In this document: piece after piece, positions 2,187 to 58,758 of the stretch | How the letters are laid out: each line of letters begins with the position of its first letter | How positions within the stretch are numbered: the first letter of the stretch is position 1 | Position numbers and translations under genes: made by a program | Notes under the pieces: generated by a model | The model's database searches: none | The model's input: the letters and a program-made list of their open reading frames with translations, nothing else | What the model was told of the DNA's origin: nothing | DNA from: an uncultured Candidatus Saccharibacteria bacterium | GTDB taxonomy: Bacteria; Patescibacteriota; CALEFQ01; G965231055 | Reading direction: 5' to 3' | Length of the DNA: 64,000 bases | NCBI GenBank assembly: GCA_965231055.1 | Contig: OZ246411.1 | Location: forward strand, 116,711 to 180,710

Positions 2187-2264
2187 TCAGCTTTCAGTAT
2201 TCATAAAAATCTACTCAACATCGCCTAAAACAAATGAATACTGATCGCTGAAAACTGAATACTT
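2187..2264. repeat. Family-A intergenic palindromic repeat (core TGAATACTGA-N-ACTGAATAC / GTATTCAG), immediately upstream of trpS
   Basis: Shares the 14-mer gaatactgatcgct with 25246..25262. Related copies at 15335..15450, 17290..17395, 25201..25270 and 39950..40050. Confidence 0.65.
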
Positions 2265-2275
2265 AATCTAAAAAT

Positions 2276-3253
2276 ATGCAAAGACTATTTAGCGGGGCAC
2301 GCCCCACAGGACAACTTCATATCGGAAATTACCTAGGAGCCATAAAAAATTGGGTGGATTTAGTTTCCAAATATGATTCCATCTTTGCAGCCGTTGACTA
2401 TCACGCTATCACCTCCCAGCACGATCCCAAGCAAATCAAGGAAGGTGTAAGAAATCTGGTACTTGATTATCTTTCTGTAGGACTTGATCCAGAAAAATGC
2501 CACATGGTCGTCCAATCAATGATCCCAGAACATACTGAGCTTGCTTGGATTTTGAACACCATCACTCCCCTTTCCGAATTACAAAGAATGCCTACCTTCA
2601 AGGAAAAAATTCAAACCCAACCAAAGGATGTAAACATGGCACTTCTTGATTATCCCGTACTCATGGCAGCGGATATATTGATTTACAAATCTGTTATAGT
2701 GCCAGTAGGTGAAGACCAGGCACCTCACGTAGAATTCACAAGATCACTAGCTAGAAAATTCAACAATCAATTTGGCAAGACATTTATCGAGCCTAAAGAA
2801 TACATTATGAAAACAGGGGCCAAGATAATGTCACTAAAAAGACCAAATGAAAAAATGAGCAAAACTGCCGGAGATGGAATTTTGCTTTCAGATAAACCAG
2901 AAGCTATAAAGAAAAAAGTGATGAGTGCTACCACGGATTCAGGCAAAGAAATCAAAGCAGGCAAAGACAAACCAGGTATTACAAATCTTCTATCTATTTA
3001 TTCCTTGTTTACAAACAAGACTATTGAAGAATCTGAAAAAGATTTTGAAGGTAAGAGCTACGCTGATTTCAAATCAGGTGTAGCTGATGCGATAATTGCA
3101 GGACTAAGGCCAATTCAAGACCTTCGAGCCAAATATGAAAAAGACAAAGGAGCTCTAGACAGGGTACTTGAAGACGGAGTCGCATATGCCAGACCGATAG
3201 CACAACAAACAATAAATGAAGTGAAGGAAAAAGTAGGACTCTGGACGAACTAG
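2276..3253 (+). CDS. trpS: Tryptophanyl-tRNA synthetase
   Basis: 325 aa. The N-terminal HIGH-type motif (TGQLHIGNYLGA) and KMSKT (KMSKS) motif are both present, a class I aaRS of TrpRS size. Confidence 0.9.
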   Translation: MQRLFSGARPTGQLHIGNYLGAIKNWVDLVSKYDSIFAAVDYHAITSQHDPKQIKEGVRNLVLDYLSVGLDPEKCHMVVQSMIPEHTELAWILNTITPLSELQRMPTFKEKIQTQPKDVNMALLDYPVLMAADILIYKSVIVPVGEDQAPHVEFTRSLARKFNNQFGKTFIEPKEYIMKTGAKIMSLKRPNEKMSKTAGDGILLSDKPEAIKKKVMSATTDSGKEIKAGKDKPGITNLLSIYSLFTNKTIEESEKDFEGKSYADFKSGVADAIIAGLRPIQDLRAKYEKDKGALDRVLEDGVAYARPIAQQTINEVKEKVGLWTN

Positions 3254-3320
3254 GTTGTAGGTTAGAGGAATTAGTGGAACTAGATGTATTAGAGGTTTTA
3301 GGTGATAGGTTTTAGGTTTT
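3241..3320. repeat. Family-B repeat copy (tandem GGTTTTAGG units plus TAGAGGTATTAG-like unit) in the trpS 3' region
   Basis: taggttgtaggttagagg...gtattagaggttttaggtgataggttttaggttttag. Confidence 0.55.
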
Positions 3321-3553
3321 AGAAAATTTACGTCATCCCTGCCTGCCGGTCAGGCAGGCCCAACTTGATTGCGCAAGCAAGCTTGATTGGGGACCCAGAA
3401 GTCGTCGTGGTTTAGTATGTAAAGAATACTATTACACTTATAAGCTAATACATATTAGCTTATATCCATTTATACCTCCTAAAATTAATCATATGTGGTG
3501 TCTGGATCCCCGTTTTCACGGGGATGACGACGAGGTATAGTCTGTTTACAAAA

Positions 3554-5013: not shown

Positions 5014-5052
5014 AATCAAAAACTCTATGAAACTAAAAATTGTAAAATTGGA
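5009..5052. repeat. Left copy of a ~44-bp direct repeat. It duplicates the dut RBS/start region (aaact-c-tatgaaactaaaaattgtaaaattggatgtcagtatt).
   Basis: About 42/44 identical to 6297..6339. It creates a 16-codon mini-ORF MKLKIVKLDVSIIMTK (5017..5067) that copies the dut N-terminus. Confidence 0.8.
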
Positions 5053-5102
5053 TGTCAGTATTATAATGACTAAATAAAATTACTTTTTTAATACTAAAAC
5101 GC

Positions 5103-6293
5103 ATGGGAGCCGAGCAAATACCACAGATAGATACACAATCAGAGCAGGCACAACTACAAAAAATGCCAGAATCTGTTAAGAACAATAAATTAGAAGTGCC
5201 AGACCATCAAGAAATTGAATATTTGAATTTTACCAGCGACGAAAAAGCCGATGTTCTGCGTAAAATCTCAGAAAAGTTTTCTTCAATTGATAAGGTGGCA
5301 AACGAAGGTCTGATAGATTTCCCGACCACAAAAAAAGAAATTGAAGAATTTATCTTTTTAAACCCCGAACACTTCGGAACCAAAAGACTAGCAGAAGTTG
5401 CCTTGGCAGAAACAGAATTTGCCCCCAAATTGATAAGAGAAATAGCTGACAGAAAAGAGTATAGTCAATTAGAACAAATTTTACAGCAGCATAAAGAAAA
5501 ACCAGTCTTTAAACACTGCGTCGCGCAGATTGAATTGAGTCTAAAAGATGAGGGCATGCAAGAAAGTATACTCATGGCACTATCAGAATCTCTAGCAAAA
5601 GACGACGAAGCGGAAAAAGTTGCTTTTGAAAAATTTTCCGAATTCATGCTGGCAAAACCAGAAAAGGCCTCTAGAGATTTGGCCACTTATTTTGATTTTT
5701 TAGGTATCAGCGAAGTAAATGCTAAAAAATTATTGGACAAAAAAAATCTGCTATTAATTGGAGGAGGAATTGCGCCAATAAAAAATGAGCTACTAGAAAG
5801 AGGCATTGATTGTAGAGTCACAAATATTGAGCCCTTACTAAAAGATAATACAAGGGAAAACTCCGATCAACCCATATCTAAAAACTTCTACGATGTCAGC
5901 GCCGAAGAAATGGGAAAACATGACGAAATATGGTCTGCCAACAACTCCTTGCCAACATACGCCTTCAATCCAGAGCAAGTAAAAGTTTTTTATCAAAAAG
6001 CTCTTGGTGCTATTAATCCAGGTGGCTATTTAAGAGTTATCCCATTTCAAGGTTTTGCAGATTCAATAACGCCATCCATGAGATTAAGCAGACTTCCAAC
6101 TAGCAATGAATCAATTCGACAAGTAGAAGCCCTTCGAAAACGACCCGATCTTTTTGAAGTGGAAGAATTTGAGACACCTCAGCTTAAATCTTTTTTTGGG
6201 AAAAAAAATAAAATGACTGGAGTAAATATCAGAGCCATTGGAACCCAAGAACAAATTAATGCTTTTCTAAAAGACATTTCGGATAAAAAATAG
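5103..6293 (+). CDS. Putative class I SAM-dependent methyltransferase-like protein with an N-terminal acidic domain
   Basis: The C-terminal half has MTase-like motifs: LLLIGGGIAP (motif I-like), RVTNIEP, DEIWSANNSL, INPGGYLRVIP (motif III-like). This is a weak, fold-level call. Confidence 0.5.
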   Translation: MGAEQIPQIDTQSEQAQLQKMPESVKNNKLEVPDHQEIEYLNFTSDEKADVLRKISEKFSSIDKVANEGLIDFPTTKKEIEEFIFLNPEHFGTKRLAEVALAETEFAPKLIREIADRKEYSQLEQILQQHKEKPVFKHCVAQIELSLKDEGMQESILMALSESLAKDDEAEKVAFEKFSEFMLAKPEKASRDLATYFDFLGISEVNAKKLLDKKNLLLIGGGIAPIKNELLERGIDCRVTNIEPLLKDNTRENSDQPISKNFYDVSAEEMGKHDEIWSANNSLPTYAFNPEQVKVFYQKALGAINPGGYLRVIPFQGFADSITPSMRLSRLPTSNESIRQVEALRKRPDLFEVEEFETPQLKSFFGKKNKMTGVNIRAIGTQEQINAFLKDISDKK

Positions 6294-6296
6294 AAT

Positions 6297-6339
6297 AAAC
6301 TATATGAAACTAAAAATTGTAAAATTGGATGCCAGTACT
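6297..6339. repeat. Right copy of the ~44-bp direct repeat, overlapping the genuine dut start
   Basis: See 5009..5052. 29 consecutive identical nt plus flanking matches. Confidence 0.8.
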
Positions 6340-6732
6340 ACTATCCCCAAATACGCTCACCCTGGTGACGCTGGTTTGGATTTGTTTTCCAATACCGACG
6401 AAATCATCAGACCAAATGAATCAAAACTGATCCAAACCGGAATTGCCATAGAATTACCACCACTCACCGAAGCTCAAATCAGACCTCGTAGTGGCCTTGC
6501 TCTGAAAAATCAAATTACTGTATTGAACTCACCAGGCACGATAGACTCTGGCTATAGAGGTGAAATAGGGGTAATATTAATCAATCACTCTACCTCGGAT
6601 TTTGTTGTTAAAAAAGGAATGAAAATCGCCCAAATGGTAATTACCAATTTCATTTCGGTGGATGTAGAAGAAACTAGCGATATGAATAAAACCGCCAGAG
6701 GTGTGGGAGGATTTGGATCAACTGGAAATTAG
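6304..6732 (+). CDS. dut: dUTP diphosphatase (dUTPase)
   Basis: 142 aa with GDAGLDLF, RSGLALK and IDSGYRGEIGVILINHS motifs, the canonical trimeric dUTPase motifs. Confidence 0.9.
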   Translation: MKLKIVKLDASTTIPKYAHPGDAGLDLFSNTDEIIRPNESKLIQTGIAIELPPLTEAQIRPRSGLALKNQITVLNSPGTIDSGYRGEIGVILINHSTSDFVVKKGMKIAQMVITNFISVDVEETSDMNKTARGVGGFGSTGN

Positions 6733-7184: not shown

Positions 7185-7360
7185 GGGACCACCAGCATAG
7201 ATCCCATTGATTCTCACGGTAATGCAAAAGCATTTTTACCCATGTGCGGGCGGTGTGTACAAGACCGAGAGGTCTTATAAAGAGATCAAAAGATCTCACT
7301 TCCGTTCGCTCGCCGCTACTTGGTCCCCGCAATACTGGTGGTGGTAATGAGCTTTTTTTG
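7185..7360 (+). ncRNA. Structured element (candidate ncRNA or 3'UTR structure). It carries reverse complements of universal 16S and 23S rRNA motifs and ends in an intrinsic terminator.
   Basis: Outer stem ccaccag/ctggtgg with T-run at 7353-7359. Internal hairpins AAGACC-gaga-GGTCTT and GAGATC-aaaa-GATCTC. 7239..7266 is the rc of 16S GGYCTTGTACACACCGCCCG.CA..TGGG. 7302..7320 is the rc of 23S AGTAGCGGCGAGCGAACGG. Confidence 0.45.
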
Positions 7361-13896: not shown

Positions 13897-15324
13897 CTAT
13901 TCACTATCTAAGCTCTCCACATTAACCCCAAAACTCCAATCTATCTCACTATAGCTATGTAAAAGTTTATTTATATAATCTCTTAGTTTTTCATATTCTG
14001 CCTGCTCCTTGGCTTCAAATTTAACAGTCAAATAAGGACCATTTTGAGAATAGCGTACCACAAACATGCTATTTTTTAGTTCCAACCTTACTCCATCCCC
14101 CGCTCGCTCATCGTCCACCACTTCAGCATCCGGAAAGGCCTTTTTGGCATCAGCTGAAATTTTTGCAGTAACTTCAATTTTTTTATCATCAGGACAACCT
14201 ATTTTTATCTCGGGACTTGAAATATATTTTGGAAGCTTACTTAATACATCTGCAATAGTTTGATTGGTATCAGATAGATACTGAATCAAGGTAAGCGCCG
14301 AATAAATTCCATCGTCATGATTGTAAAAATCTTTTGAAAAGAAGAAGTGACCAGAAAGTTCTCCGATAAATGCCGCGCCCACTTCTTTGTTTTTGTTTTT
14401 AAGAAATGAATGCCCCACTCTCCACTGAAATGGTTTGCCACCATTTTTAAGAATGGTTTCCTTGACCGCTTTTGAGCAAAGCAAGTTGTACATGATAATT
14501 GCTCCTTTGTGTTTTTTAAGTTGGTACTCCGCAAAAATTTCCAAAAGCACATCATTCCAAACTATCTGCCCCGCCTCCCCCACAACTCCTATCCTATCTC
14601 CATCAGTATCAAATGAAATTCCAATATCTGCATTTGTTTCCAAAATTTTTGCTTTCAGTCGTTCTGCCACTACAACTTCCGTGGGGTCAGGAGTACCTGC
14701 AGGAAAAGTGGGATCTAGATTGCATTTATTTTCTACCACTTCTATGCCAAGTTCTCTAAACAACTCTGGAACGATAGCTCCTGCAGTTGCATGACTTGCA
14801 TCCAAAACCAATTTAAATTTCTTTTTTATATTAAAACGTTTCTGCATTTCGGCAGTGTATACTGGCATGATATCCATTTTTTCAATCTTACCTTTTTTGT
14901 CTGACGCAACGTAATCCTCTTTTTCAACCATGTTGCGAACACTTTGTATCCCCAAACTCTCGAGCGTGCTTGAAAAATCATTTGCAAGTTTAAATCCATT
15001 GTATTCACTTGGATTATGTGAAGCCGTGACATATACTCCACCCTTGGCTTCAAGATGATACTGAGCAAAATAAAAAGTCCCCACCAAAACCATTCCGATA
15101 TCCACCACGTCTATTCCACAGTCTGACAATCCTTTTGCGACAGCATTTGTGTATTCTTCGCTAGTAGCCCTGCTATCTCGCGCAACAACAGCTTTGTTTA
15201 TGCCTTTTTGGACAAGCAAAGTTCCATGAGCTCTACCTATGTGCTCCGCTATTTCGGCGCTCAGATCCTTGTCCACAATTCCTCTTATATCATACCCGCG
15301 GAAGATTTGTTTGTTTGTTTTCAT
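13897..15324 (-). CDS. Phosphomannomutase/phosphoglucomutase (alpha-D-phosphohexomutase family)
   Basis: 475 aa. The TASHNPSEYNGFK active-site serine loop is present. Confidence 0.85.
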   Translation of the reverse strand: MKTNKQIFRGYDIRGIVDKDLSAEIAEHIGRAHGTLLVQKGINKAVVARDSRATSEEYTNAVAKGLSDCGIDVVDIGMVLVGTFYFAQYHLEAKGGVYVTASHNPSEYNGFKLANDFSSTLESLGIQSVRNMVEKEDYVASDKKGKIEKMDIMPVYTAEMQKRFNIKKKFKLVLDASHATAGAIVPELFRELGIEVVENKCNLDPTFPAGTPDPTEVVVAERLKAKILETNADIGISFDTDGDRIGVVGEAGQIVWNDVLLEIFAEYQLKKHKGAIIMYNLLCSKAVKETILKNGGKPFQWRVGHSFLKNKNKEVGAAFIGELSGHFFFSKDFYNHDDGIYSALTLIQYLSDTNQTIADVLSKLPKYISSPEIKIGCPDDKKIEVTAKISADAKKAFPDAEVVDDERAGDGVRLELKNSMFVVRYSQNGPYLTVKFEAKEQAEYEKLRDYINKLLHSYSEIDWSFGVNVESLDSE

Positions 15325-15334
15325 ATTTTTAGTA

Positions 15335-15450
15335 TTAAGTGTTCAGTTTTCAGTTTTCAAAATCATGAATACTGATAACTGAATACTTGCTTGCCCGCCA
15401 GAGGCGGACAGGCGCAAGCAAGCTAACCACTGAGTACTTATTGTACCCCA
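15335..15450. repeat. Family-A repeat copy plus a GC-rich hairpin (cttgcttgc-ccgccagaggcggacaggc-gcaagcaag)
   Basis: gttcagttttcagttttc ... gaatactgataactgaatactt. The hairpin segment gcgcaagcaagct is also present at 3380..3393. Confidence 0.65.
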
Positions 15451-17219: not shown

Positions 17220-17289
17220 TCAATATTGGAAAAATAAAGAAGCGCGAGAAGGATTTCACCTTCACTGACCGCTTCTTTTTTCTTACAGA

Positions 17290-17395
17290 AATTAGTAATC
17301 AGTTCTCAGTGATCAGCATTCACACTAACTATTGGCAATCAGCCTTCGGCAACTAATAGCTGAATACTGAAAGCTGAACACTCAATCCACTTATC
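17290..17395. repeat. Family-A repeat copy
   Basis: taatcagttctcagtgatcag ... gctgaatactgaaagctgaacact. Confidence 0.55.
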
Positions 17396-24058: not shown

Positions 24059-24104
24059 TGTTGTTTTCCTCCTTCCCGCGTAGCGGGATTAAATAAATAA
24101 TATT

Positions 24105-24205
24105 TTAAATTTTAGAAGTCTTAGAGGTATTAGAAGAATTAACTCTCTTCTTCTAATAATACTATTGCCTCTATTACTAATAACTCCATAACCTAACACC
24201 TAAAA
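24105..24205. repeat. Family-B repeat copy with a nested inverted repeat, located between recA and the RodZ-like gene
   Basis: tagaggtattagaagaa...ttcttctaat...cctcta, followed by ataacctaacacctaaaaac (rc of the GGTTTTAGGTGTTAGGTTAT unit). Confidence 0.55.
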
Positions 24206-24206
24206 A

Positions 24207-25193
24207 CTACCTGCTAGCCACTGGTTTTGATGCATCAAATTCTTTGTCCATAATTTCAGAATCAGAGTCTCCCAATCTGCCAACATCTTTGCCATTGAAA
24301 GTTAGATATGTAACGGATGGTTTTCCTGATGAAATTTTTATATTTTCGTTCGCACCAATCACTTTTTTATCATCCGGCATCAGTATGTCAGAAAAAACAT
24401 TTTTGCCATCAGCTTCAAGTGAAATCCAAGCCGCTTCCCTGACAGAGACTTCCAATTCAATCTGATCATTTTTTTCTTTGCTAGACTTTTTTTCTACTAG
24501 GTTTGAAGATGATCCACTTTTGAATATTGTTCTTTCTATCTTCGTTTCTTTTTCAAATTTATTTTTCGCAATAATTTCAAAGCTGTTTATACCATCTGCC
24601 AAATCTATTGTTTTCGCAAAGGCACCATCTTTTTCTACGAACACTTTTTGTCCGTTTATATAAATTTCGGAATCGGAATCGCTAATTTTTCCTTTAAATA
24701 CGGTTTGAAAATCTGAAGTTTCAATCTTATCTCCAGGGCTTTCAAGCTCTATAATCGGAGCACTGGTGAAACTAGAAATAGCAACACCAAGATAAATAAT
24801 TGCGGTAACTACTATAGCCCCTATCAAACCAATTTTGATAAATCTCGGGTTCAAAACAGCGAAAGAAAACTTCATTGGTTTGGCTATTTTGAATGGCTTC
24901 TTTTCTTTTTCTATATTTTTCTTTATACCGCTTTCTTTTTTCAGAAGTTTCAATGCTCTTCTTGAATCTAGCCTCAGATATTCAGCATAATTTTTCACAA
25001 ATCCTTGGACATAAACATCAGCTGGAAGTTTGGAATTGTTTCCTTCTTCCAGTCCCTGTAAAAATGACTTGGGCACCTTGATGTCGTGCGCTACTTCTTC
25101 TAGCTCAACACCCATCTCTTCTCTTTTATGCCTCAGCCACTCTCCCAAGGATTGTCCGGTGTTTAATTTTTGTGTTACGAAACCGCTTACCAT
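24207..25193 (-). CDS. RodZ-like protein (N-terminal HTH, single TM, C-terminal DUF4115-like domain)
   Basis: HTH_XRE-like N-terminus (GEWLRHKREEMGVELEEVAHDIKVPKSFLQGLEEG) and TM IGLIGAIVVTAIIYLGVAI. Confidence 0.55.
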   Translation of the reverse strand: MVSGFVTQKLNTGQSLGEWLRHKREEMGVELEEVAHDIKVPKSFLQGLEEGNNSKLPADVYVQGFVKNYAEYLRLDSRRALKLLKKESGIKKNIEKEKKPFKIAKPMKFSFAVLNPRFIKIGLIGAIVVTAIIYLGVAISSFTSAPIIELESPGDKIETSDFQTVFKGKISDSDSEIYINGQKVFVEKDGAFAKTIDLADGINSFEIIAKNKFEKETKIERTIFKSGSSSNLVEKKSSKEKNDQIELEVSVREAAWISLEADGKNVFSDILMPDDKKVIGANENIKISSGKPSVTYLTFNGKDVGRLGDSDSEIMDKEFDASKPVASR

Positions 25194-25200
25194 ATAAATA

Positions 25201-25270
25201 TTAAGTAATCAGTATTCAGTTTTCAGTTGCACATTATTGAATACTGAATATTGAATACTGATCGCTTCCA
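25201..25270. repeat. Family-A repeat copy (near-perfect inverted repeat)
   Basis: cagtattcagttttcag ... tgaatactgaatattgaatactgatcgct. Confidence 0.65.
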
Positions 25271-39945: not shown

Positions 39946-39949
39946 GTTT

Positions 39950-40050
39950 TTAGTTTTAAGTATTCAGTATTCAACTTTCTGTACTTGGCAATCATTATAG
40001 ATAGCCAACTGGATACTGAAAACTGACTACTGCGTGCTTATTGTAACCAA
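39950..40050. repeat. Family-A repeat copy
   Basis: agtattcagtattcaac ... ggatactgaaaactgactactg ... cttattgtaacc (the tail is shared with 15420..15445). Confidence 0.6.
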
Positions 40051-49781: not shown

Positions 49782-50639
49782 ATGATTTCAGGATTTTTAA
49801 ATATCAATAAACCAGAAAACATCACTTCTCATGGAGTTGCCCAAAAGCTCAAATCAATACTTGGTACAAGGCGAATTGGGCACGCAGGCACACTAGATCC
49901 ATTTGCCACGGGAGTTCTTGTGATAGCTATAGATAAATCTACGAAACTCATGGAATATCTGGTTAACGACACCAAAGAGTACGTAGCTGATTTCATACTT
50001 GGCATGGAAACTGATACCCATGACAGAACAGGAAAACAGACCAATATAAGCAAAATTACATCTATTCCCCTTAGTGAAATCCGCACCGCTTTAAAAAAAT
50101 TCACAGGCGAGATAGAGCAAATTCCCCCCATGTATTCTGCTATTAAAATAAAAGGCAAAAAACTGTATGAATTAGCTAGGGCTGGGAAAGAAATAGAAAG
50201 AGAGGCCAGAAAAATCACCATATCCGAACTTGAAATAATAGAATATCACTACCCCCTACTTAAAGTAAAAATAAACTGCTCTAGCGGTACTTACATAAGA
50301 TCGCTCGCACACGACATAGGAAAGATATTGGGATGCGGGGCCTATGTAAATGATCTAATGCGAACCAAATCGGGAAATTTCAATATAGAAGAAAGCGTGC
50401 CACTTGAGGCTATCACAAGAGATTCAATAAATAAGTATCTAATTCCTTCAGGAAAAGCTATAGATCTACCAAGTTTCATAGCAAATCCAGATCAAATCTC
50501 GCATATAAAGATGGGTCAACCAATAAAATGCGAACTCAAAGATCAGAGAGTAATAGCCATCGATCCTAGTAAAAATATTCTCTCGATACTTGAAAAAAAT
50601 CCGGATCTAATGTATTATCCGAAAAAGGTACTTATCTAG
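49782..50639 (+). CDS. truB: tRNA pseudouridine(55) synthase
   Basis: GHAGTLDPFATGVLVIAI catalytic Asp motif. C-terminal PUA-like region. Confidence 0.9.
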   Translation: MISGFLNINKPENITSHGVAQKLKSILGTRRIGHAGTLDPFATGVLVIAIDKSTKLMEYLVNDTKEYVADFILGMETDTHDRTGKQTNISKITSIPLSEIRTALKKFTGEIEQIPPMYSAIKIKGKKLYELARAGKEIEREARKITISELEIIEYHYPLLKVKINCSSGTYIRSLAHDIGKILGCGAYVNDLMRTKSGNFNIEESVPLEAITRDSINKYLIPSGKAIDLPSFIANPDQISHIKMGQPIKCELKDQRVIAIDPSKNILSILEKNPDLMYYPKKVLI

Positions 50640-50640
50640 G

Positions 50641-50672
50641 TACTAGGTGTCAGGTTTTAGGTTTTAGACGCA
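50641..50672. repeat. Family-B short repeat (GGTGTYAGGTTTTAGGTTTTAG), left inverted copy flanking the four-helix-bundle gene
   Basis: Inverted partner at 51101..51133. The same motif recurs at 3283..3320 and 24180..24205. Confidence 0.6.
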
Positions 50673-50710
50673 CCAATCCATGACACAATAATTATTTAGC
50701 AGGAGGGAAA

Positions 50711-51085
50711 ATGAAAAGAGTAATAAAAAGCTTCAAAGATCTTTTGGTTTGGCAAAAGTCTATTGAGTTAATAAAAACAACATACTCAATAGTCAATAAT
50801 TTCCCAAAACACGAGCTTTATTGCTTGTCTGCACAAATAAGACGAAGTGCAATTTCAATAGCTTCAAATATCGCGGAGGGAAGAAACAGAAGTACTAGAA
50901 AAGACTTTAGACAGTTTCTATTCATTGCTCTGGGATCTGGAGCCGAACTTGAAACACAAATTATAATAGCAAGAGAATTAGATTACATAGAAGAAGAGGA
51001 ATTTAATTCATTTATGTTTTCACTCACTGAGGTAATGAAAATGATAAATGGCTTGATATCAAAATTAAACATCCCTAGCGCATAG
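50711..51085 (+). CDS. Four-helix-bundle protein (23S rRNA intervening-sequence protein family)
   Basis: 124 aa. DLLVWQKSIEL...RSAISIASNIAEG...GSGAELETQI matches the IVS-protein family. Flanked by inverted family-B repeats. Confidence 0.8.
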   Translation: MKRVIKSFKDLLVWQKSIELIKTTYSIVNNFPKHELYCLSAQIRRSAISIASNIAEGRNRSTRKDFRQFLFIALGSGAELETQIIIARELDYIEEEEFNSFMFSLTEVMKMINGLISKLNIPSA

Positions 51086-51090
51086 CATCT

Positions 51091-51136
51091 AGCCAAGTAA
51101 CTAAAACCTAACACCTATAACCTATAACCTAATATA
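51091..51136. repeat. Family-B short repeat, right inverted copy (ctaaaacctaacacctataacctataacc)
   Basis: Its reverse complement, taggtgttaggttttag, matches the left copy taggtgtcaggttttag. Confidence 0.6.
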
Positions 51137-51400
51137 ATGGCAAATCTAAAATCAGCTAAAAAAGCTATCAGACAAACTAAACGAAGAACAGCGCACAATC
51201 TTGAAAAGAAAATTAAGCTCAAAAAAGCTATCACAGAGATTAAAAAACTAATAACAGCAGGAAAAGAAGAAGATGCAAAAAAGAAAGTATCTGCACTTCA
51301 AAAAATCCTAGATAAATCAGCCAAGACCAATTTGATTCACACAAACAGAGCACGAAGACTCAAATCAAGGCTCACCAAGAAACTCAAGATCAAAAAATAA
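51137..51400 (+). CDS. rpsT: 30S ribosomal protein S20
   Basis: MANLKSAKKAIRQTKRRTAHN... a basic helical protein of 87 aa. Confidence 0.85.
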   Translation: MANLKSAKKAIRQTKRRTAHNLEKKIKLKKAITEIKKLITAGKEEDAKKKVSALQKILDKSAKTNLIHTNRARRLKSRLTKKLKIKK

Positions 51401-51504: not shown

Positions 51505-54500
51505 CTATTGTATGAGGAAATAATTGAATCCTACATCATCCCCCACTGCTGTATCAAACTTGATAATAAATCCATTTGGAGAATCTTTTTCTATCCAGTA
51601 TCTAGTTGCTGGAGCATAATCATTTTCAAATGTCACAACAACTTTTGTAGTGTCAATTACTGAAAGATTTTCTACTGCAAACTCATCCGATCCTTTTTTA
51701 ACTATTCCAGATCCAGCCGAGCCATTTGGTTTTTCGTATATTTTAAGCTCTTCAGTAGAAATACTTTTTACAAATAGATTTCCGTTCTCATCTATTGACC
51801 ATTTGTTGCTCGCACCAACAATTGATCCTGTGGTGATCATGCCTGAAACAGAGAAATCACCATCTATTGCATTTGCATTTTGATCAATTCCGAGTTTGCT
51901 TTCCACATTTTCAATTCTTGAAATCATATCACCCAGAGAAGTAGTTTGAGCTTTATCTATTTCCAATAAATACACGGGTAATTTACTATAATCAACTGCA
52001 ACCGCATCTCCGTTTGAATTGTAAGAAATCAAATTTGTAAGTCCCAAAGACTCTAACTGACCCACTAAGTAGCCTATACTCTTTCTGCCCGAGTTATTTT
52101 CAAAAAGTTTTGGATCTAGTGAAAATATCTTATTCCAATCGTCACTAAAATCTCCAGACAACTCGCCAATACCAGAGTACACAGCAAGAGAGTTCTCTAT
52201 GCCGGAGATTCTATTTATCAAATCAGAAATATCATTGGAGAACGAAGTGTGTTGAGTTTTGTTTTTCGCTAAAGCGCTGTTAATCGAAACAATATCTCCC
52301 TCGCTATCATCCATTCTGTTATCGATATTTGAGATAAGCTGTCCATTTTTATCTATCATAACTTGTTGATCCTGCATGGCAAGAGTCAAAACTGGAATCA
52401 ATAGATCCTTCGCTACAGCCAAATATCCATCATTTCCTTCACTCACCATTTCTGGGAAAACTACTTGAGCTTCTTGAGCTACGAAACCATAGATAGTTGG
52501 ACCATCAGGATCCTGTTTTCTATTATATTGCCTTACCGTCAAAGCGTTTATAATACCTAAAGCATCAATATCGGCATCAGCAATATTGGTTTTCTTTCTA
52601 CTGTCAGAAGCATCAGCTAAAGAGAATGTTCCTCCGTTATTCTGAATATAACCAACATTGGTTCCATCACCATCATATGCATTTATGTAATAAGTGGTTC
52701 CGGTGCCATCATCTGCTCCTGCCTGTATCCTGATTCCATATCTATTTGCGTTATTTCCGTCGTTGAAAAAGTTAGCAACATAACCAGATGCTGAGTCTGT
52801 TTGCACATCCAAAGGATAACCAGCTGTTCCACTTCCAGAAGGAGCGATTAAAACTTGCCCGTCACCCTCCACAACCATTCTTCTCGTGCCATTTGTAAGA
52901 AAACTGATTGGGTAAGCACCTTGCTGATCCAACAGAAATCCACCACTATTTGTATTTTCTCCGTAAATATAACCTGCATCAGCATACAAACCAGCCATTG
53001 CCTGACTTGCAGCACCAATTTCTAACCAAGTACTTTGACCAGAAAGACCAACATCAGCCGCCGCGAGCGCGCCGGCATTTTGATTTCCGACGACAATACC
53101 TGCCGCAGCATTAGTATCATGATAAACATCAAGTTTTCTACCCGGATCAGAAGTTCCTATGCCCACATTTCCGGTTGGATTGAAGTAAACATCGTCTGCA
53201 GCGGTGATGAGCAAATCCTCTGAAGCATCAGAATTAGCTGAAATTCTTGTACTAGAAGTATCAAACTGAATATAGTCAGATGCAGGAAATATGAGATTTC
53301 CATTGGTATCAAAATAGTTTCCAGTATCTCCCATATAGGTTGTAGCTGTAAGATATGCGTTACCACCCGAATACAATGGATAACTAGCATTTGGATCAAT
53401 TCCTATGCCCACATATCTAAAATCTCCATCACCTGCGTTTGTTACTCTATAAGTAGTACCACCCAAATTCAAAGTTCCATCAGTATCAAAATACACTGAA
53501 GTCGTGCCAAGATATGTAATATTTTCCAAATAAACATTTCCACCATTTACATCAAGTCCGTAATTTCCATAAGTACCACCGATATAAACACCATAATCAG
53601 CTGTACCGCCTATATTCAAAGCCGTTTCTGTGGCATTTGCATGAGCTGATGCAATCTGAATATCAACACCATATAAATTATTTGATGCACCGCTATGAAC
53701 CGCATTGGTTATTGATACTGCTAGGCCCCTTTGAGTATCACTACCATTCATGGCGCCAGCAGTATATCCCATATAAATACCGTCAGAGCTGCTTCCTGCT
53801 GGACCAGTCGCTGTCACATTCACAGCTTTGGACGATGCCAACTGCGTACCAGCAACAACTGCAAGTGGAGTGGTTCCACCTGTTATGTATATACCGTAAT
53901 CAACATCAGCAAAAGCTGAGTTTATATAAGCTCCATAATCAGTTCCAGTTCCATTTTGAGTTTCTATATATGCTCCATAGTTCGATCTGGCTCCCAGTGA
54001 TTTTGCATACAAACCATAATTTGTTCTGCCGAGAGTGCCAGTAACATTCGTAGCGATTGCATCAGCATAAACAGCAACTGTGTTTAGATCCTGATACACC
54101 GCCGAATCGCTAGGGCTATAAACTGCTCCATACATACCCACGAGCGTAGTATCCCTAATCACTGCGGTATCCCAAGCATCAACCGCAAAATATCCACCCA
54201 TCAGCGAAAAAGTTCCGGGGCCAGTTCCCATATCTATAATGGAATCTTCTTCTATGCTAACAAGTCCTTCTACTGCCAATATATAATTATCTTCTGAGTC
54301 AGAAATATTTGATTTAACAACGTTTTGTCCGGAAACACCTATGCTTTTTACTTCTATTCTATGAGCCTCATTTGTGTTTACACGACCCTGAACTCCAGCA
54401 TTATATCCCGTAGATGCATCTTGAATTCTACCATCAACACCAGCAACATAAAGATCGTCAGATTTGGGATCTACATAACCTTGCAATCCGTGTGACCATT

Positions 54501-57500
54501 CAGAAACCGTACTGGCTCCACTCCTATAAACTTCCGAAGCAAAACCCAAAGAATTGGCGCTACCTGTTGATGTCATCACGATTCGCATAGCTGTTGTCCA
54601 ATCTTCCCCCACCCCTGCATTTGCGGTATTTGTTTGTTGCAGAAAAATTGATGCATCCCTTAAAACATCCGTAGAGTCCACAACATGCAGTTTATAAGAC
54701 GGGCTAGTTCCCACACCCAAATCATTTGCTACATAAACATTTCCACTATCAAAATACCCAGCCCAGTTAGTTGCTCCACCAGACGCAGTTGAATAAATAC
54801 CATAATGCGTAGCGGTTCCCGTACCGTTGGCCTGAAAGTATCCACCATAATTTGTGCCCGTTGCGGAATTTGCCCATCCCAATAAAGCACGCCCAGTGGA
54901 ACTAGAAGAGTAGGCATAAACTCCATAAGAAGAATTAGGATTAACACCATTCACAGCGAGATTAGTAGAAATCCTAGCTGCTCCGGTAATATCAAGCGGG
55001 TACGAAGGAGACATAGCAACTCCCAGTCTGCTGTTTGCCTGTATATAACCATCATTGACCTCAGCAACGCCAACCCCCAAACCACCATTTGCAACATAAG
55101 CGTCACCAGAAACATATAATGGATAGGTTGAGTTATGCGCAACATTAATACCAACATATCTAAAATCAGCATCTCTGTCTTTATAAATAGTTGCAACTTC
55201 TTGCATATATAAATCCCCCGAAATATTTACATTTCCACTAGCAAAGTATCCAGCCCAGTTAACCAAACCGCTATCTGCGGTCGCATATATACCATAATTA
55301 ACAGCAGCGCCTTCGGCAACCGATCTAGCATAAACGCCGTAACCCGAAGTCGCAGTTCCAGAACCAACATAGAAATATCCTCCATAGTTTGTACCACCGG
55401 CACCATCAGTAATACTGCTTTTCACACCATAATCATTTCCTGATCCGCCAGCGACTATTAAAAATTCTCCCGCAATATTTGAAACACCACCTCTAGCATA
55501 GCTAGCTATACCATAATTATTACTAGCTCCGGTATTTACACTAAAAGTACCGCCATAAACACTCGTATCAGTATGAGCTCCAAGAGTCACATTTGGAGAA
55601 ACATAAATACCGTCAACTCTAGCCGTGGCATCGTCCCCAACGGTTGTTGAATTGTATACATTTAATGTTCTTGTTTGACTATTGCCAGAATCTGCGACAG
55701 ATGAAATAAAACTAAATGAAGCTCCGTATTGAGTAGCAACTCCGAGGTTAGATGAAGTCGTTAAGAAATAATAACCAGACTCTCCATCCTCTTGAGACAA
55801 AGTAGCTTCTCCATGAATAGCTTGATTCGTGGTAACGCCTCCTTCAGCAGTCACATATAAACCAAAGTTTTCAGTAGCGGCTCCTGAAGCCACAAACCTA
55901 CCACCATAATTAGCATCCGTAGCATCAGCACTCTCTCCGTATACTCCGTAACCATCAGCACCGGCTGTTGTAACTATGCCATATATGCCGTAACCATTTG
56001 CAGATGCTGTAGACACTTCTCCATAAAAACCATAGCCATTGTCTGCTCGATCATTTGTTGCATAAGCTCCATAGGTATTGCCAGCTCCAGTTTTTGTTAT
56101 ATATATTCCATAACCATTATCTTCACCATTAAGAACATTTATACCCCTTGTAGTATCCACATCAATACCAACACCGAGCACCGTAGAAACATAAGCCTCA
56201 CCAGTTATATAGAAAGAATCATTGATATCAAAACGATCTTCCGCATTATTCCATGAAAGATATTTATCAGTAGGATTTGCTTCATTTGAAAAATACAAAT
56301 AACAATTTTCACTTCCGCCGCCAGCTCCACCGTCGTAGTTACAATATATATCTCCATTGCTCATCAGATCACCTGCATCAACCATGCCGGTGACTTTAAC
56401 ATCACCTTCAAACCAACCCGCCCAGACATTGTCAGCATCTTGCGCTTCTCCATAGATACCTATAGCCCAACCGCCATTAACTACGCTACCCCTCGCAATA
56501 CCATAAACACCAATATTTGAATCAGAAGATTCATCTGCAAAACCATATATACCTATATGACGCTCTTCCATAGAACCCAATCCCGTTGCTTCCCCTCTTA
56601 TTGCTATATTATCCCTAGCTGAATAACGAGAGGTATTCAAAACCCTAAGACCAGCATTGTAACTATCATTTATAATCGTGTCAGTATTGAAAAGAATCTC
56701 AGCTCCTATGGCTTGACCAGAGGGAACAGTAAGATCATCTAGCTGAAATCTATACGAGGGAACATCAGTACCGATTCCAAAATTTCCCCCCATAAAAACT
56801 CCTGAATAATTGTTGGTTGCATTGGCTACTTCAGAATATATTCCGTAGTTATTGTCAGAAGCACCATTCACCAAAATATTGATACCATTAATGGTACCGA
56901 GCGCACTATCCATTGCGATATTTATTCCGTATCCGTCTTCATAGGAATTCAAAATATTCAAACTATATCCTGCAATTGGAGTAGTGCCAATACTAAGTAG
57001 TCCCGAACTTATCGCAACATTGTCAGAGTAAGCTGGCGTGGGATAAATATAATCATCTCCAGGATTTGCATCTGTCCAAAGTCCAGCCCCTGCTGGTATA
57101 TCTGTGAGATACGCGACAGTTCCCGAAGCATCCTGAAAAGTGATAGTGTTTCCTGCTCCAGTTGGATCGGTAATAACAAAAGTACTAAAAACATTGTTAT
57201 CAGTAGTACCCTCAAAAACAAATGGAGATCCACCCAAAATTTGCGCACTTGCAAAATTGATATTTCCATCCGCAGTTATATTTCCTATTCCAGCTATGTC
57301 ACCAGTAGTAGAAATATCCCAGTCAGATGAATTGATATAAATAGCATCTCCTCCATCACCAAGAGTGAGTTGTCCCCCAGTCCCCACGGTAAGTGCTCCA
57401 TTCGCAGTAAGATTTGTACCTATTCCCGTGATACTATTTCCACCCATCGTAAGGTTAGCTCCGGTGATATCTATACCATTATTCGCATCTAGATTTCCTG

Positions 57501-58758
57501 TGAAAGTAACTTGTTGATTTGCTGATTGGTTTATTGCTCCAGCAGTAGTGATTGAGAAGTTTCCATTCACGGTAAAACTAGCGCCTGTTATATCAAGACC
57601 GTTTGTAGCATCCACATTTCCAGAGAAAGTTACTTGTCCAACACCCGTTTGAGTTAGAGCCGAGTTGGCCTGAGCAAATGTCCATGTTCCTAAGGTGCCA
57701 TTGAAAACAAGTGAAGATCCAGAAATAGAAAATGAATCCGAATTTACATAAGCAATAGATCCCGTACTGCCATTTACTGAATACATGTTCAATACCGAAT
57801 TGGTTGTAGATCCATCGCCTATTCTCAAAGTGTTCTGATCTACATCTACAGACAAAGCTGAGGCAAGTGTGTCGCCCCCGATAGAAACATCATTGGCTAA
57901 TACTGTTGGGTGCAAAACTGTTCCTGTTATAGTCCACTGCCCACCCGAAGCGCCAGACAAAGAAATCAAAGCATCAACTATCCCCCTATCTCCTGCAGCA
58001 AATGCGGCGTTGAATGAAGCGGTATCTGCAGTTAATGAAAATGGTATAGCGGTAGTGATTCTACTATCACTAAATGTAATTCCGTCAGAATTATTGAAAT
58101 TAATACTATTAGCTGTATTTGATGTTATAGAGATATCGGTTCCAGAAATAGAAACATTGTCTCCACCATCACCCAAAATCACCTGCCCATTTGATCTCAA
58201 AATACCATCCACTCTCAAACTTGCCTGCATCACAATATCTTCGTCTGTGATAGCTCCTCTTTCAGCAACGAAATCCAAAGTTATTTCTGATTCCAAATAC
58301 CCACCTATTTTTTCAGAATTCAAACTATATACAGTTCCACCTATTTTGGCGCGTGGGGTCATCTCACTATCTGATCCCACCTTGATTCCTAGATAATAAA
58401 CCGAGTTAGAAAAATTTAAATTTATAGGATTGGTTTCTCCCAAATTTACATTGAAAATTCCATCATGCACATATACAGATCCGTGAGTCTCAGACCATAA
58501 TGCACCTCCACCATTTTCCGAACTATAGATATTGAAAACTATTTGATAATTTCCATCACTCACATTTTCTCCTGCAGGAGTCCTCAAAAGACCCTGAAAA
58601 TTAATCATATTATCATAGGCTTCGGCAGTTCTTATGTCGCTGTTTCCGAAATATCCCAACAAAGCAAAAATCAGCGCTATAGCTGACGCCACGAGAGCAA
58701 CCATATTAAGTATTTTTTTGATTTTTATTTTGCTCATTTTACAATAAAAGAGTGCCAA
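51505..58758 (-). CDS. Giant (2417 aa) membrane-anchored Gly/Thr/Ser/Asn-rich fibre-like surface protein with a peptidase-S74-like intramolecular chaperone domain
   Basis: N-terminal TM anchor. About 2000 aa of imperfect repeats with recurring aromatic motifs (NYGIYA, GYGVY, NWAGYF). Residues ~2051-2140 (nt ~52340..52608) match the S74 domain: SDSRKKTNI...GFVAQEAQVVFPEMV...GYLAVAKDLLIPVLTLAMQ. About 280 aa follow it, including a second ...VDYSKLPVYLLEIDKA... segment. Confidence 0.8.
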   Translation of the reverse strand: MALFYCKMSKIKIKKILNMVALVASAIALIFALLGYFGNSDIRTAEAYDNMINFQGLLRTPAGENVSDGNYQIVFNIYSSENGGGALWSETHGSVYVHDGIFNVNLGETNPINLNFSNSVYYLGIKVGSDSEMTPRAKIGGTVYSLNSEKIGGYLESEITLDFVAERGAITDEDIVMQASLRVDGILRSNGQVILGDGGDNVSISGTDISITSNTANSINFNNSDGITFSDSRITTAIPFSLTADTASFNAAFAAGDRGIVDALISLSGASGGQWTITGTVLHPTVLANDVSIGGDTLASALSVDVDQNTLRIGDGSTTNSVLNMYSVNGSTGSIAYVNSDSFSISGSSLVFNGTLGTWTFAQANSALTQTGVGQVTFSGNVDATNGLDITGASFTVNGNFSITTAGAINQSANQQVTFTGNLDANNGIDITGANLTMGGNSITGIGTNLTANGALTVGTGGQLTLGDGGDAIYINSSDWDISTTGDIAGIGNITADGNINFASAQILGGSPFVFEGTTDNNVFSTFVITDPTGAGNTITFQDASGTVAYLTDIPAGAGLWTDANPGDDYIYPTPAYSDNVAISSGLLSIGTTPIAGYSLNILNSYEDGYGINIAMDSALGTINGINILVNGASDNNYGIYSEVANATNNYSGVFMGGNFGIGTDVPSYRFQLDDLTVPSGQAIGAEILFNTDTIINDSYNAGLRVLNTSRYSARDNIAIRGEATGLGSMEERHIGIYGFADESSDSNIGVYGIARGSVVNGGWAIGIYGEAQDADNVWAGWFEGDVKVTGMVDAGDLMSNGDIYCNYDGGAGGGSENCYLYFSNEANPTDKYLSWNNAEDRFDINDSFYITGEAYVSTVLGVGIDVDTTRGINVLNGEDNGYGIYITKTGAGNTYGAYATNDRADNGYGFYGEVSTASANGYGIYGIVTTAGADGYGVYGESADATDANYGGRFVASGAATENFGLYVTAEGGVTTNQAIHGEATLSQEDGESGYYFLTTSSNLGVATQYGASFSFISSVADSGNSQTRTLNVYNSTTVGDDATARVDGIYVSPNVTLGAHTDTSVYGGTFSVNTGASNNYGIASYARGGVSNIAGEFLIVAGGSGNDYGVKSSITDGAGGTNYGGYFYVGSGTATSGYGVYARSVAEGAAVNYGIYATADSGLVNWAGYFASGNVNISGDLYMQEVATIYKDRDADFRYVGINVAHNSTYPLYVSGDAYVANGGLGVGVAEVNDGYIQANSRLGVAMSPSYPLDITGAARISTNLAVNGVNPNSSYGVYAYSSSSTGRALLGWANSATGTNYGGYFQANGTGTATHYGIYSTASGGATNWAGYFDSGNVYVANDLGVGTSPSYKLHVVDSTDVLRDASIFLQQTNTANAGVGEDWTTAMRIVMTSTGSANSLGFASEVYRSGASTVSEWSHGLQGYVDPKSDDLYVAGVDGRIQDASTGYNAGVQGRVNTNEAHRIEVKSIGVSGQNVVKSNISDSEDNYILAVEGLVSIEEDSIIDMGTGPGTFSLMGGYFAVDAWDTAVIRDTTLVGMYGAVYSPSDSAVYQDLNTVAVYADAIATNVTGTLGRTNYGLYAKSLGARSNYGAYIETQNGTGTDYGAYINSAFADVDYGIYITGGTTPLAVVAGTQLASSKAVNVTATGPAGSSSDGIYMGYTAGAMNGSDTQRGLAVSITNAVHSGASNNLYGVDIQIASAHANATETALNIGGTADYGVYIGGTYGNYGLDVNGGNVYLENITYLGTTSVYFDTDGTLNLGGTTYRVTNAGDGDFRYVGIGIDPNASYPLYSGGNAYLTATTYMGDTGNYFDTNGNLIFPASDYIQFDTSSTRISANSDASEDLLITAADDVYFNPTGNVGIGTSDPGRKLDVYHDTNAAAGIVVGNQNAGALAAADVGLSGQSTWLEIGAASQAMAGLYADAGYIYGENTNSGGFLLDQQGAYPISFLTNGTRRMVVEGDGQVLIAPSGSGTAGYPLDVQTDSASGYVANFFNDGNNANRYGIRIQAGADDGTGTTYYINAYDGDGTNVGYIQNNGGTFSLADASDSRKKTNIADADIDALGIINALTVRQYNRKQDPDGPTIYGFVAQEAQVVFPEMVSEGNDGYLAVAKDLLIPVLTLAMQDQQVMIDKNGQLISNIDNRMDDSEGDIVSINSALAKNKTQHTSFSNDISDLINRISGIENSLAVYSGIGELSGDFSDDWNKIFSLDPKLFENNSGRKSIGYLVGQLESLGLTNLISYNSNGDAVAVDYSKLPVYLLEIDKAQTTSLGDMISRIENVESKLGIDQNANAIDGDFSVSGMITTGSIVGASNKWSIDENGNLFVKSISTEELKIYEKPNGSAGSGIVKKGSDEFAVENLSVIDTTKVVVTFENDYAPATRYWIEKDSPNGFIIKFDTAVGDDVGFNYFLIQ

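Follow-up and report, generated by a model that had tools for sequence, protein, structure and literature searches.

A four-helix-bundle protein gene between truB and rpsT of a Candidatus Saccharibacteria bacterium is bracketed by inverted heptamer arrays, as are most of its homologues across phyla

A 64,000-nt stretch of an uncultured Candidatus Saccharibacteria bacterium (assembly GCA_965231055.1, contig OZ246411.1, positions 116,711 to 180,710), referred to below as the window, contains a small gene between truB and rpsT that encodes a protein of the S23p family, the four-helix-bundle (4HB) proteins named after the intervening sequences (IVS) of 23S rRNA genes. The gene is enclosed by two inverted arrays of tandem heptamers, and this array-bracketed architecture is a hallmark of the 4HB family across phyla. 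Inverted flanking arrays, scored as a best ungapped flank-to-flank inverted repeat of at least 12, were found at 82% of 83 4HB loci but at only 5.5% of 165 control open reading frames (ORFs) of the same loci. The 4HB proteins of S23p and 23S IVS have been known since the early 1990s, and crystal structures of them exist. To our knowledge, no function has been assigned to them outside diversity-generating retroelements (DGRs), and we know of no function for the intergenic heptamer repeats, namely the short tandemly repeated repetitive (STRR) sequences of cyanobacteria, TAACTGA of Beggiatoa, and GGGAATC of Xanthomonas. The association would tie these two long-standing orphans together and makes both the 4HB proteins and the heptamer repeats directly testable.

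The locus is organised as follows, in coordinates of the window.
49782..50639, + strand: truB, the upstream host gene (TIGR00431, E = 1.3e-77), whose TAG stop codon at 50637-50639 falls in the first unit of the 5' array.
50637..50667, + strand: 5' arm, heptamers TAGGTAC TAGGTGT CAGGTTT TAGGTTT TAG, with the AG-type strand reading towards the gene.
50668..50710, + strand: spacer, with a Shine-Dalgarno-like AGGAGGG at 50701-50707, 3 nt before the ATG.
50711..51085, + strand: 4HB gene, 124 aa (PF05635/TIGR02436), a homologue of XCC0516 and, distantly, of the DGR protein Avd.
51101..51132, - strand: 3' arm, minus-strand heptamers TAGGTTA TAGGTTA TAGGTGT TAGGTTT TAG, stopping 4 nt short of the rpsT ATG.
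51137..51400, + strand: rpsT (S20), the downstream host gene (TIGR00029, E = 4.3e-22).

The 124-aa product of ORF 50711..51085 (+) matched PF05635 (23S_rRNA_IVP) over residues 9-114 with an E value of 2.7e-38 and 130.9 bits against a cutoff of 33.8, and it also exceeded the cutoffs of TIGR02436 (127.7 vs 24) and NF008911 (139.8 vs 137 bits). It matched PDB entry 2GSC (XCC0516) with an E value of 5.9e-20, and 2RLD is a homologue as well; five chains are deposited in each of these entries. A homopentameric toroid of four-helix bundles is predicted for the protein, carried over from these homologues. The helix motif R-x3-S-x3-N-x2-E described for 4HB proteins (PMC3936711) is present, and in a 30-sequence alignment R45, S49, and E56 were invariant, with N53 conserved in at least 90%.

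The arms at 50637-50667 and 51101-51131 form an inverted repeat of 31 nt with 81% complementarity, rising to 88% in a 24-nt core. Both arms consist of tandem heptamers (period 7 in Tandem Repeats Finder), with about four TAGGTNN units each, and the whole truB-rpsT insert measures about 495 nt. The first-pass annotation of this DNA had placed a 23S-IVS-type 4HB gene, bounded by inverted repeat copies, between these two genes, and both statements were borne out by the protein family matches and the arms. No promoter- or terminator-like signal was detected above shuffled controls within truB-4HB-rpsT. In the minimum free energy (MFE) fold of the RNA from 50630 to 51140, an arm-arm stem closes the 4HB ORF (z = -4.6). 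We tentatively read the feature, with a probability somewhat short of even, as a promoter-less, IVS-like 4HB cassette: convergent arrays, probably the target of the encoded protein itself, would loop it out of the truB-rpsT transcript.

For the family-wide comparison, 80 loci were taken from GTDB representative genomes of taxa including Patescibacteria, Clostridia, Bacteroidota, Acidobacteriota, Desulfobacterota, Planctomycetota, Chloroflexota, and Proteobacteria. Nearly all of these loci carried a 7-mer array 5' of the gene and its reverse complement 3' of it, the unit being specific to the genome or the cassette. Of the 80 clear arrays, 70 had 7 nt as their best tandem period (34 of 38 on the upstream side and 36 of 42 on the downstream side). 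The median arm was 29 nt long, and the gene-facing strand was poor in C (13% C, 30% G). The four closest homologues, about 60% identical, reside in other Patescibacteria and in other operons (a PrgI/TraC type IV secretion system [T4SS]-like operon, a glycosyltransferase operon, and fusA-tuf), and all of them have TAG-containing heptamers running from the upstream stop codon and the reverse complement 3' of the gene. Arms were also present at 23 of 33 4HB loci on viral contigs and at cyanobacterial plasmid copies such as cas6-4HB-cas4 in Anabaena sp. 90, which is flanked by (CAGGTGA)n and (CTGTCAC)n. These placements support the view that the gene and its inverted arms behave as one unit in unrelated operons of different organisms.

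In the plasmid pANA02 of Anabaena sp. 90 (L096), a type I-D locus has the cassette between its cas6 and cas4 genes. The N-terminus annotated for cas4 takes in the 3' array of the cassette, (CTGTCAC)4, which points to either a mis-called start or a translated array. Two viral contigs (L124 and L125) carry tandem duplicate 4HB genes with a near-self-complementary array (ACGTTGA/ACGTTCA)n between them; this common array may function twice, as 3' arm for one gene and as 5' arm for the following one. In five Patescibacteria loci (L002, L008, L012, L023, and L026), the cassette stands immediately 5' of a PrgI-like gene in a T4SS-like operon, with units that differ between the genomes; the PrgI-side site has either been conserved or been targeted repeatedly.

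Alignment of the units by rotation (119 arrays from 71 loci) yielded a common unit of A (77%), G (92%), N3, Y, Y with an information content of 3.55 bits, compared with at most 2.46 bits in 20 position-permuted controls. The arrays contained a median of 4.7 units. Counted from the first base of the preceding gene's stop codon (TAG in 29 of 56 loci), the median start of the 5' array was +3 nt, and a median of 8 nt separated the end of the 3' array from the ATG of the next gene. In 53 of 85 loci, both neighbouring genes had the same direction as the 4HB gene, and the gaps to the neighbours measured about 50 nt. A general function of the arrays in supplying stop codons in all three frames was rejected, given that such stops occurred in 39-43% of the arrays with no strand asymmetry; three-frame stops do hold for the TAG-type arrays of the candidate phyla radiation. 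The idea of an integron attC site, prompted by the fit of GTTAGGT to GTTRRRY, was dropped because arms flank the gene at either end, the units are variable, and there is no integrase. Most units are not G-tracts, which speaks against telomere-like addition or a G-quadruplex.

Paralogues within one genome show to what the arms belong. At L024, two paralogues 1-2 kb apart and 66% identical have units that differ by one base (CGGTTTT and CTGTTTT), each unit occurring on both sides of its own gene. At L054, two paralogues at the same spacing and 34% identical have unrelated units (AGGGTCT and GATTTAT), each again matched on both sides. Furthermore, protein distance correlated with unit distance over the 71 loci (Mantel r = 0.23, p = 5e-4), and the correlation held after GC content was removed. 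The arms therefore belong to the cassette and not to the genome.

The heptamers of the truB-rpsT locus recur elsewhere in the window. The 17-mer TAGGTGTYAGGTTTTAG was found in six copies with up to two mismatches, compared with 0.04 expected (0 of 100 shuffles), and period-7 arrays numbered 17 compared with about 4 expected. Copies of the motif had been noted earlier at further gene boundaries together with a companion unit; they were recovered at 3299-3322 (+) and 24186-24202 (-), both among the TAGGTGTYAGGTTTTAG matches, and the companion is real, since 9-mer TTAGAGGNA arrays adjoin the heptamer arrays at both sites (3262-3301 and 24099-24141). Identity between the segment 3293-3323 and the 5' arm (50638-50668) is 87%. 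At the second site, the 9-mers of 24112-24175 build a hairpin of their own beyond the heptamers, the loop of which holds no ORF. The TAG stop codon of the upstream gene is the start of all three TAGGT-family arrays (50637, 3251, and 24209). Five gene boundaries carry convergent hairpins of a second unit family, AGTATTC/AGTTTTC, which is TAACTGA-like when read from the opposite strand. The loops of these hairpins measure 6-43 nt; the hairpins often finish a few nucleotides before a start codon and resemble the TAACTGA repeats of Beggiatoaceae. No 4HB gene is associated with second-family units in the window; the five hairpins illustrate gene-free array pairs, and the one at 2187..2267 is an 'empty' counterpart of the 4HB cassette. 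The arrays are as follows.
2187..2267, + strand: convergent hairpin, second family (AGTATTC / TAACTGA-like), between co-directional genes; ends 8 nt before the ATG at 2276.
3251..3322, + strand: solo array of the TAGGT family, beginning at the TAG stop of gene 2276..3253; 9-mers TTAGAGGNA at 3262-3301, then heptamers at 3293-3322.
15325..15390, - strand: convergent hairpin, second family, exact TAACTGA; 6-nt loop; immediately 5' of the ATG of gene 13897..15324.
17287..17385, + strand: convergent pair, second family; 43-nt loop; intergenic.
24099..24209, - strand: TAGGT-family array; the heptamers begin at the TAG stop (24207-24209) of gene 24207..25193.
25195..25261, - strand: convergent hairpin, second family; loop of about 8 nt; immediately 5' of the ATG of gene 24207..25193.
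39946..40032, + strand: convergent pair, second family; 34-nt loop; divergent intergenic region.

An explanation by chance or low complexity, in which AT-rich spacer noise surrounds an ordinary small gene, could appeal to the low GC content of the window (37%) and to the commonness of short repeats in an AT-rich genome. It is already refuted by the motif count and the family-wide bracketing, and its probability is negligible: the architecture recurs in more than 90 independent loci, and the metagenomic contigs that carry the motif span 31-69% GC.

The exact 17-mer TAGGTGTYAGGTTTTAG was present in at least 120 of such contigs, nearly all copies lying within longer heptamer arrays. A 4HB ORF lay ahead of it in 5 of 106 copies and behind it in 0 of 105, whereas in 39 of 96 cases the AG-type array had a convergent partner array ahead of it, with a median loop of 24 nt, and in 2 the partner was behind. 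Because the 4HB ORF adjoins so few of the copies and the partner array so many, the 4HB gene is a minority cargo of the loop; the general object is a convergent pair of heptamer arrays in which the AG-type array is always 5'. The association of repeat and gene, which the first-pass annotation had proposed to check by counting, is thus lopsided: the genes are bracketed by arrays far more often than their neighbours are, but few copies of the motif adjoin a 4HB gene.

These counts bear on a second explanation, according to which the arrays are host intergenic elements with a role of their own (mRNA stability hairpins, translational coupling, or products of replication slippage) and the 4HB gene merely lodges in their loops with no interaction between protein and repeat. 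The abundance of period-7 arrays in the window, the five 'empty' hairpins at gene boundaries, and the rarity of the gene beside the metagenomic motif speak for it, as do the heptamer repeats described alone in Beggiatoaceae, Xanthomonas, and Nostoc (PMC4679880, PMC4692102). However, it leaves unexplained why 82% of 4HB genes but 5.5% of their neighbours are bracketed, why paralogues of one genome have different matched units, and why the type of unit tracks protein similarity. We consider this explanation improbable, but with a real chance of being correct.

The position of the truB-rpsT unit was compared with that in a syntenic relative that shares the order Mur ligase-FemAB-RuvA / truB-rpsT. 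There, the truB-rpsT spacer is 47 nt long and contains neither repeats nor a 4HB gene. Since this junction is empty, the unit is an insertion or a loss on one lineage. The relative is distant, its TruB being 47% identical and yet the best TruB match in the protein database, so recent movement is not demonstrated. No transposase or recombinase was found among the domains within 6 kb on either side of the 4HB gene, which comprise only Mur ligase, FemAB, RuvA, UvrB, TruB, S20, and Peptidase_S74. No target-site duplication exists outside the arms: the flanks read ...GGTACTTATC / arm...arm / ATATAATGGC, with no direct repeat. The window holds one copy of the 4HB gene. On the other hand, the identical 4HB protein WP_010994075.1 is encoded on two plasmids of Nostoc PCC 7120, pCC7120gamma (L093) and pCC7120alpha (L094). 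Over 452 nt, the DNA of the two copies has 91% identity; the homology sets in 1 nt before the ATG, takes in the 3' array, and ends about 95 nt downstream of the stop codon. Both copies follow ISL3 transposase fragments, and both are without a 5' array.

A third explanation regards the unit as a mobile DNA cassette resembling a miniature inverted-repeat transposable element (MITE). The arrays would be terminal inverted repeats (TIRs) recognised as DNA by a recombinase or transposase acting in trans, or by the 4HB protein as a cofactor, and the unit would transpose or be copied between intergenic sites, rRNA helices included. The range of unrelated operons in which the unit lies (T4SS-like, glycosyltransferase, fusA-tuf, cas6-cas4, and truB-rpsT, to which cmr3-cmr2 can be added from PMC3936711), the empty junction in the relative, the 33 4HB loci on viral contigs, the protein common to the two Nostoc plasmids, and the cassette-specific arms all agree with such mobility; moreover, the arms show neither wobble bias nor strict pairing, which fits recognition of both ends at the level of DNA. 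Against it stand the missing transposase, recombinase, and target-site duplication, the single gene copy in the 64 kb, the distance of the empty-site relative, ends that are variable tandem arrays with no defined termini, and same-motif arrays that are about 20 times commoner without the gene. We regard this explanation as unlikely, although its chance is appreciable. The mobile cassette with inverted termini that the first-pass annotation envisaged is thereby retained as far as a unit found in unrelated operons and an empty site are concerned, but its termini are not unique TIRs. Its further suggestion of a mobile system active in this genome received no support, in view of the same absences and the lack of a second gene copy in the window.

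The same annotation had suggested that this system derives from IVS and had linked it to an rRNA-fragment element at 7185..7360. That 4HB proteins are normally encoded inside 23S IVS is a matter of the family name: rRNA genes were found within 2.5 kb of 0 of 40 homologous 4HB loci, and the 'IVS-derived' direction is therefore unsupported. No rRNA was detected in the window by the Rfam gathering threshold or at E <= 1, the 7185..7360 element included. Within that element, identity with the E. coli 23S rRNA gene is confined to 22-28 nt (7302-7329) in the conserved ...CGCTCGCCGCTACT... segment, and this match may be a remnant, a mimic, or a product of chance. The proposed link between the 4HB cassette and the element comes down to this short match and was not upheld.

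To return to the cassette looped out of the operon transcript, we propose the following course of events. On the operon RNA, the two arrays would pair into an imperfect stem of about 25-31 bp and loop the cassette out, in the way known from the terminal stems of rRNA IVS that encode S23p. The truB stop would thereby come to lie beside the rpsT start, so that the insertion would be tolerated. By analogy with those IVS, the arm stem would be a plausible substrate of RNase III. The 5'-side AG-type array would be the probable binding site of a ring-shaped 4HB oligomer, one heptamer per subunit, in the way in which HutP binds (NAG-N4)3 or TRAP binds NAG repeats. Binding would then control formation of the stem and expression of both the cassette and the downstream gene. 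The short 'empty' convergent hairpins of the genome may be further targets of 4HB-type proteins, or else landing sites or remnants of cassettes.

Several observations weigh against this course of events or call for its modification. Arm mismatches showed no excess of G.U (58 G.U vs 74 A.C-type and 147 other mismatches in 68 loci), so that selection for RNA pairing, tested through G.U bias, was rejected. The mirror order of the units was barely above that of shuffled arms (5.59 vs 5.46 of 7, p = 0.026). Because there is no G.U excess and the mirror order is only marginal, exact base pairing seems to be unselected, and the stem may be an incidental outcome of having two arrays from one family. 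In addition, the AG core is weaker or absent in some unit families (e.g. TGTATAT and CGTTGTA), and a 4HB gene is missing beside most same-motif arrays, on contigs too short to show whether the genomes have one at another place.

Selection thus seems to act on convergent arrays of one unit family and not on exact pairing, and therefore a pure 'RNase III stem' model is tempered and a factor that reads the repeated unit is favoured. The encoded 4HB protein is the obvious candidate for this reader, judging from its ring-forming homologues, its relative Avd, and the precedent of HutP. In a wider form of the proposal, which is speculative and in our estimate unlikely, if with a chance worth keeping in mind, PF05635 pentamers would be sequence-specific readers of (Y)AG-N4 arrays, each paralogue with its own unit; together with the 'empty' hairpins, of which hundreds stand at gene boundaries, they would make up a widespread post-transcriptional or DNA-level control system not recognised until now, and the genes would spread as self-contained cassettes into array hairpins and rRNA helices. 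If such an array-reader system is real, it would account for the S23p/IVS proteins and for the STRR, TAACTGA, and GGGAATC repeats alike.

Some neighbouring features of the window were also recorded. Immediately after the solo array, the segment 3320-3545 (+) is GC-rich and strongly structured (MFE -78.3 kcal/mol, z = -5.6), with the long-range pairing CGTCATCCC...GGGATGACG; it matched no Rfam family and is a candidate for an unclassified small RNA or repeat element. GCGCAAGCAAGCT is common to this segment and a GC-rich hairpin at 15390-15430, which lies beside another heptamer hairpin. A direct repeat of 57 nt and 86% identity occurs at 5020-5076, just 5' of the ORF at 5103, and at 6297-6353, across the start of the adjacent ORF at 6304. 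Directly past rpsT on the opposite strand, 51505-58758 (-) holds a 2417-aa ORF that is rich in Gly/Ser/Thr/Asn repeats; it has a C-terminal Peptidase_S74 (tailspike intramolecular chaperone) domain and internal repeats at 53567-56809. A PADLOC search gave no match to a defence system, and membership of the cassette in such a system was rejected on this ground.

Among known systems, MITEs and the repetitive extragenic palindromic (REP) sequences with their bacterial interspersed mosaic elements (BIME) resemble the elements described here in being short, dispersed, intergenic, palindromic, and placed at many gene boundaries. The present unit differs from them in that it carries a conserved protein gene, has arms of tandem 7-mers instead of unique TIRs, and shows no target-site duplication.

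Distant homology connects the 4HB protein with Avd of DGRs (PF22296, E = 1.2e-7; PHROG 3206; NF033474), but the scores are below the curated cutoffs (37.8 vs 80 bits for NF033474 and 32.6 vs 40 for PF22296). Avd is pentameric, forms a positively charged barrel, and binds an RNA stem-loop (bioRxiv 10.1101/2023.10.23.563531). No reverse transcriptase was found within 6 kb of the 4HB gene and no template/variable repeat pair in the 64 kb, in which the longest imperfect direct repeat, of 57 nt, is not adenine-specific. A DGR was therefore rejected.

The HutP hexamer reads the A and G of XAG repeats at 4-nt spacing, that is, with period 7 (PMC2425495). The arrays here resemble the targets of HutP and TRAP in having about 4-5 units of (Y)AG-N4, and homologues of the 4HB protein form homopentameric rings. 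The comparison concerns the possible mode of action and not membership in these families; sequence and fold show no kinship, and binding by the 4HB protein is purely hypothetical.

An earlier report regarded 4HB genes within cas operons as possibly cas-associated (PMC3936711). The cassette offers a simpler explanation: it explains how 4HB genes can lie inside cas, ribosomal, and other operons without disrupting them. Caution is accordingly due in large surveys, where the family name and a 'CRISPR-linked' label may reflect a selfish cassette and not a function in the pathway.

The orphan heptamer repeats TAACTGA (Beggiatoaceae, cyanobacteria, and Bacteroidetes), GGGAATC (Xanthomonas), and GGGGAYT/STRR (Nostoc) are likewise 7-nt arrays at gene boundaries. 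They comprise 2 to about 20 units and often end just before a start codon (PMC4679880, PMC4692102), and convergent pairs are known in Xanthomonas (PMC4692102). Unlike those repeats as described, the arrays here bracket a 4HB gene, and the link is shown statistically. A family-term text search of the two papers and their supplements found no tie to 4HB/S23p genes. Nevertheless, in the published Xanthomonas and Nostoc tables (PMC4692102), Xcc repeat #15 (GGGAATC type) extends over the start annotated for XCC0516, and Anabaena repeat #14 (GGGGATT, 129 nt) lies 1 nt past alr0548 and 55 nt before alr0549, which encodes a 4HB protein; the adjacency of the arrays to XCC0516 and alr0549 as 4HB proteins is not remarked on in that paper. 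No description of a link between 4HB genes and heptamers was found in the full text or supplements of open-access PMC articles and bioRxiv preprints. The family-wide bracketing and its tie to the orphan heptamer repeats thus appear to be new, the gene family itself being already known.

The closest likeness in design is to the S23p-encoding IVS of 23S rRNA genes in Leptospira and Coxiella burnetii. The protein family is the same and the size is similar, about 495 nt here compared with 428-444 nt in Coxiella; in both cases, the ORF is enclosed by terminal inverted repeats with a possible stem of about 25-30 bp, and the element lies, promoter-less, within a host transcript. The Coxiella IVS, whose S23p ORF is surrounded by a 28-bp terminal stem, is excised by RNase III (PMC4990558). 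Unlike these IVS, the present unit stands between two protein genes and not in an rRNA helix, and it has tandem heptamer arrays for arms. A place in rRNA appears to be the exception, a special case of a general 'hairpin-loop cassette'.

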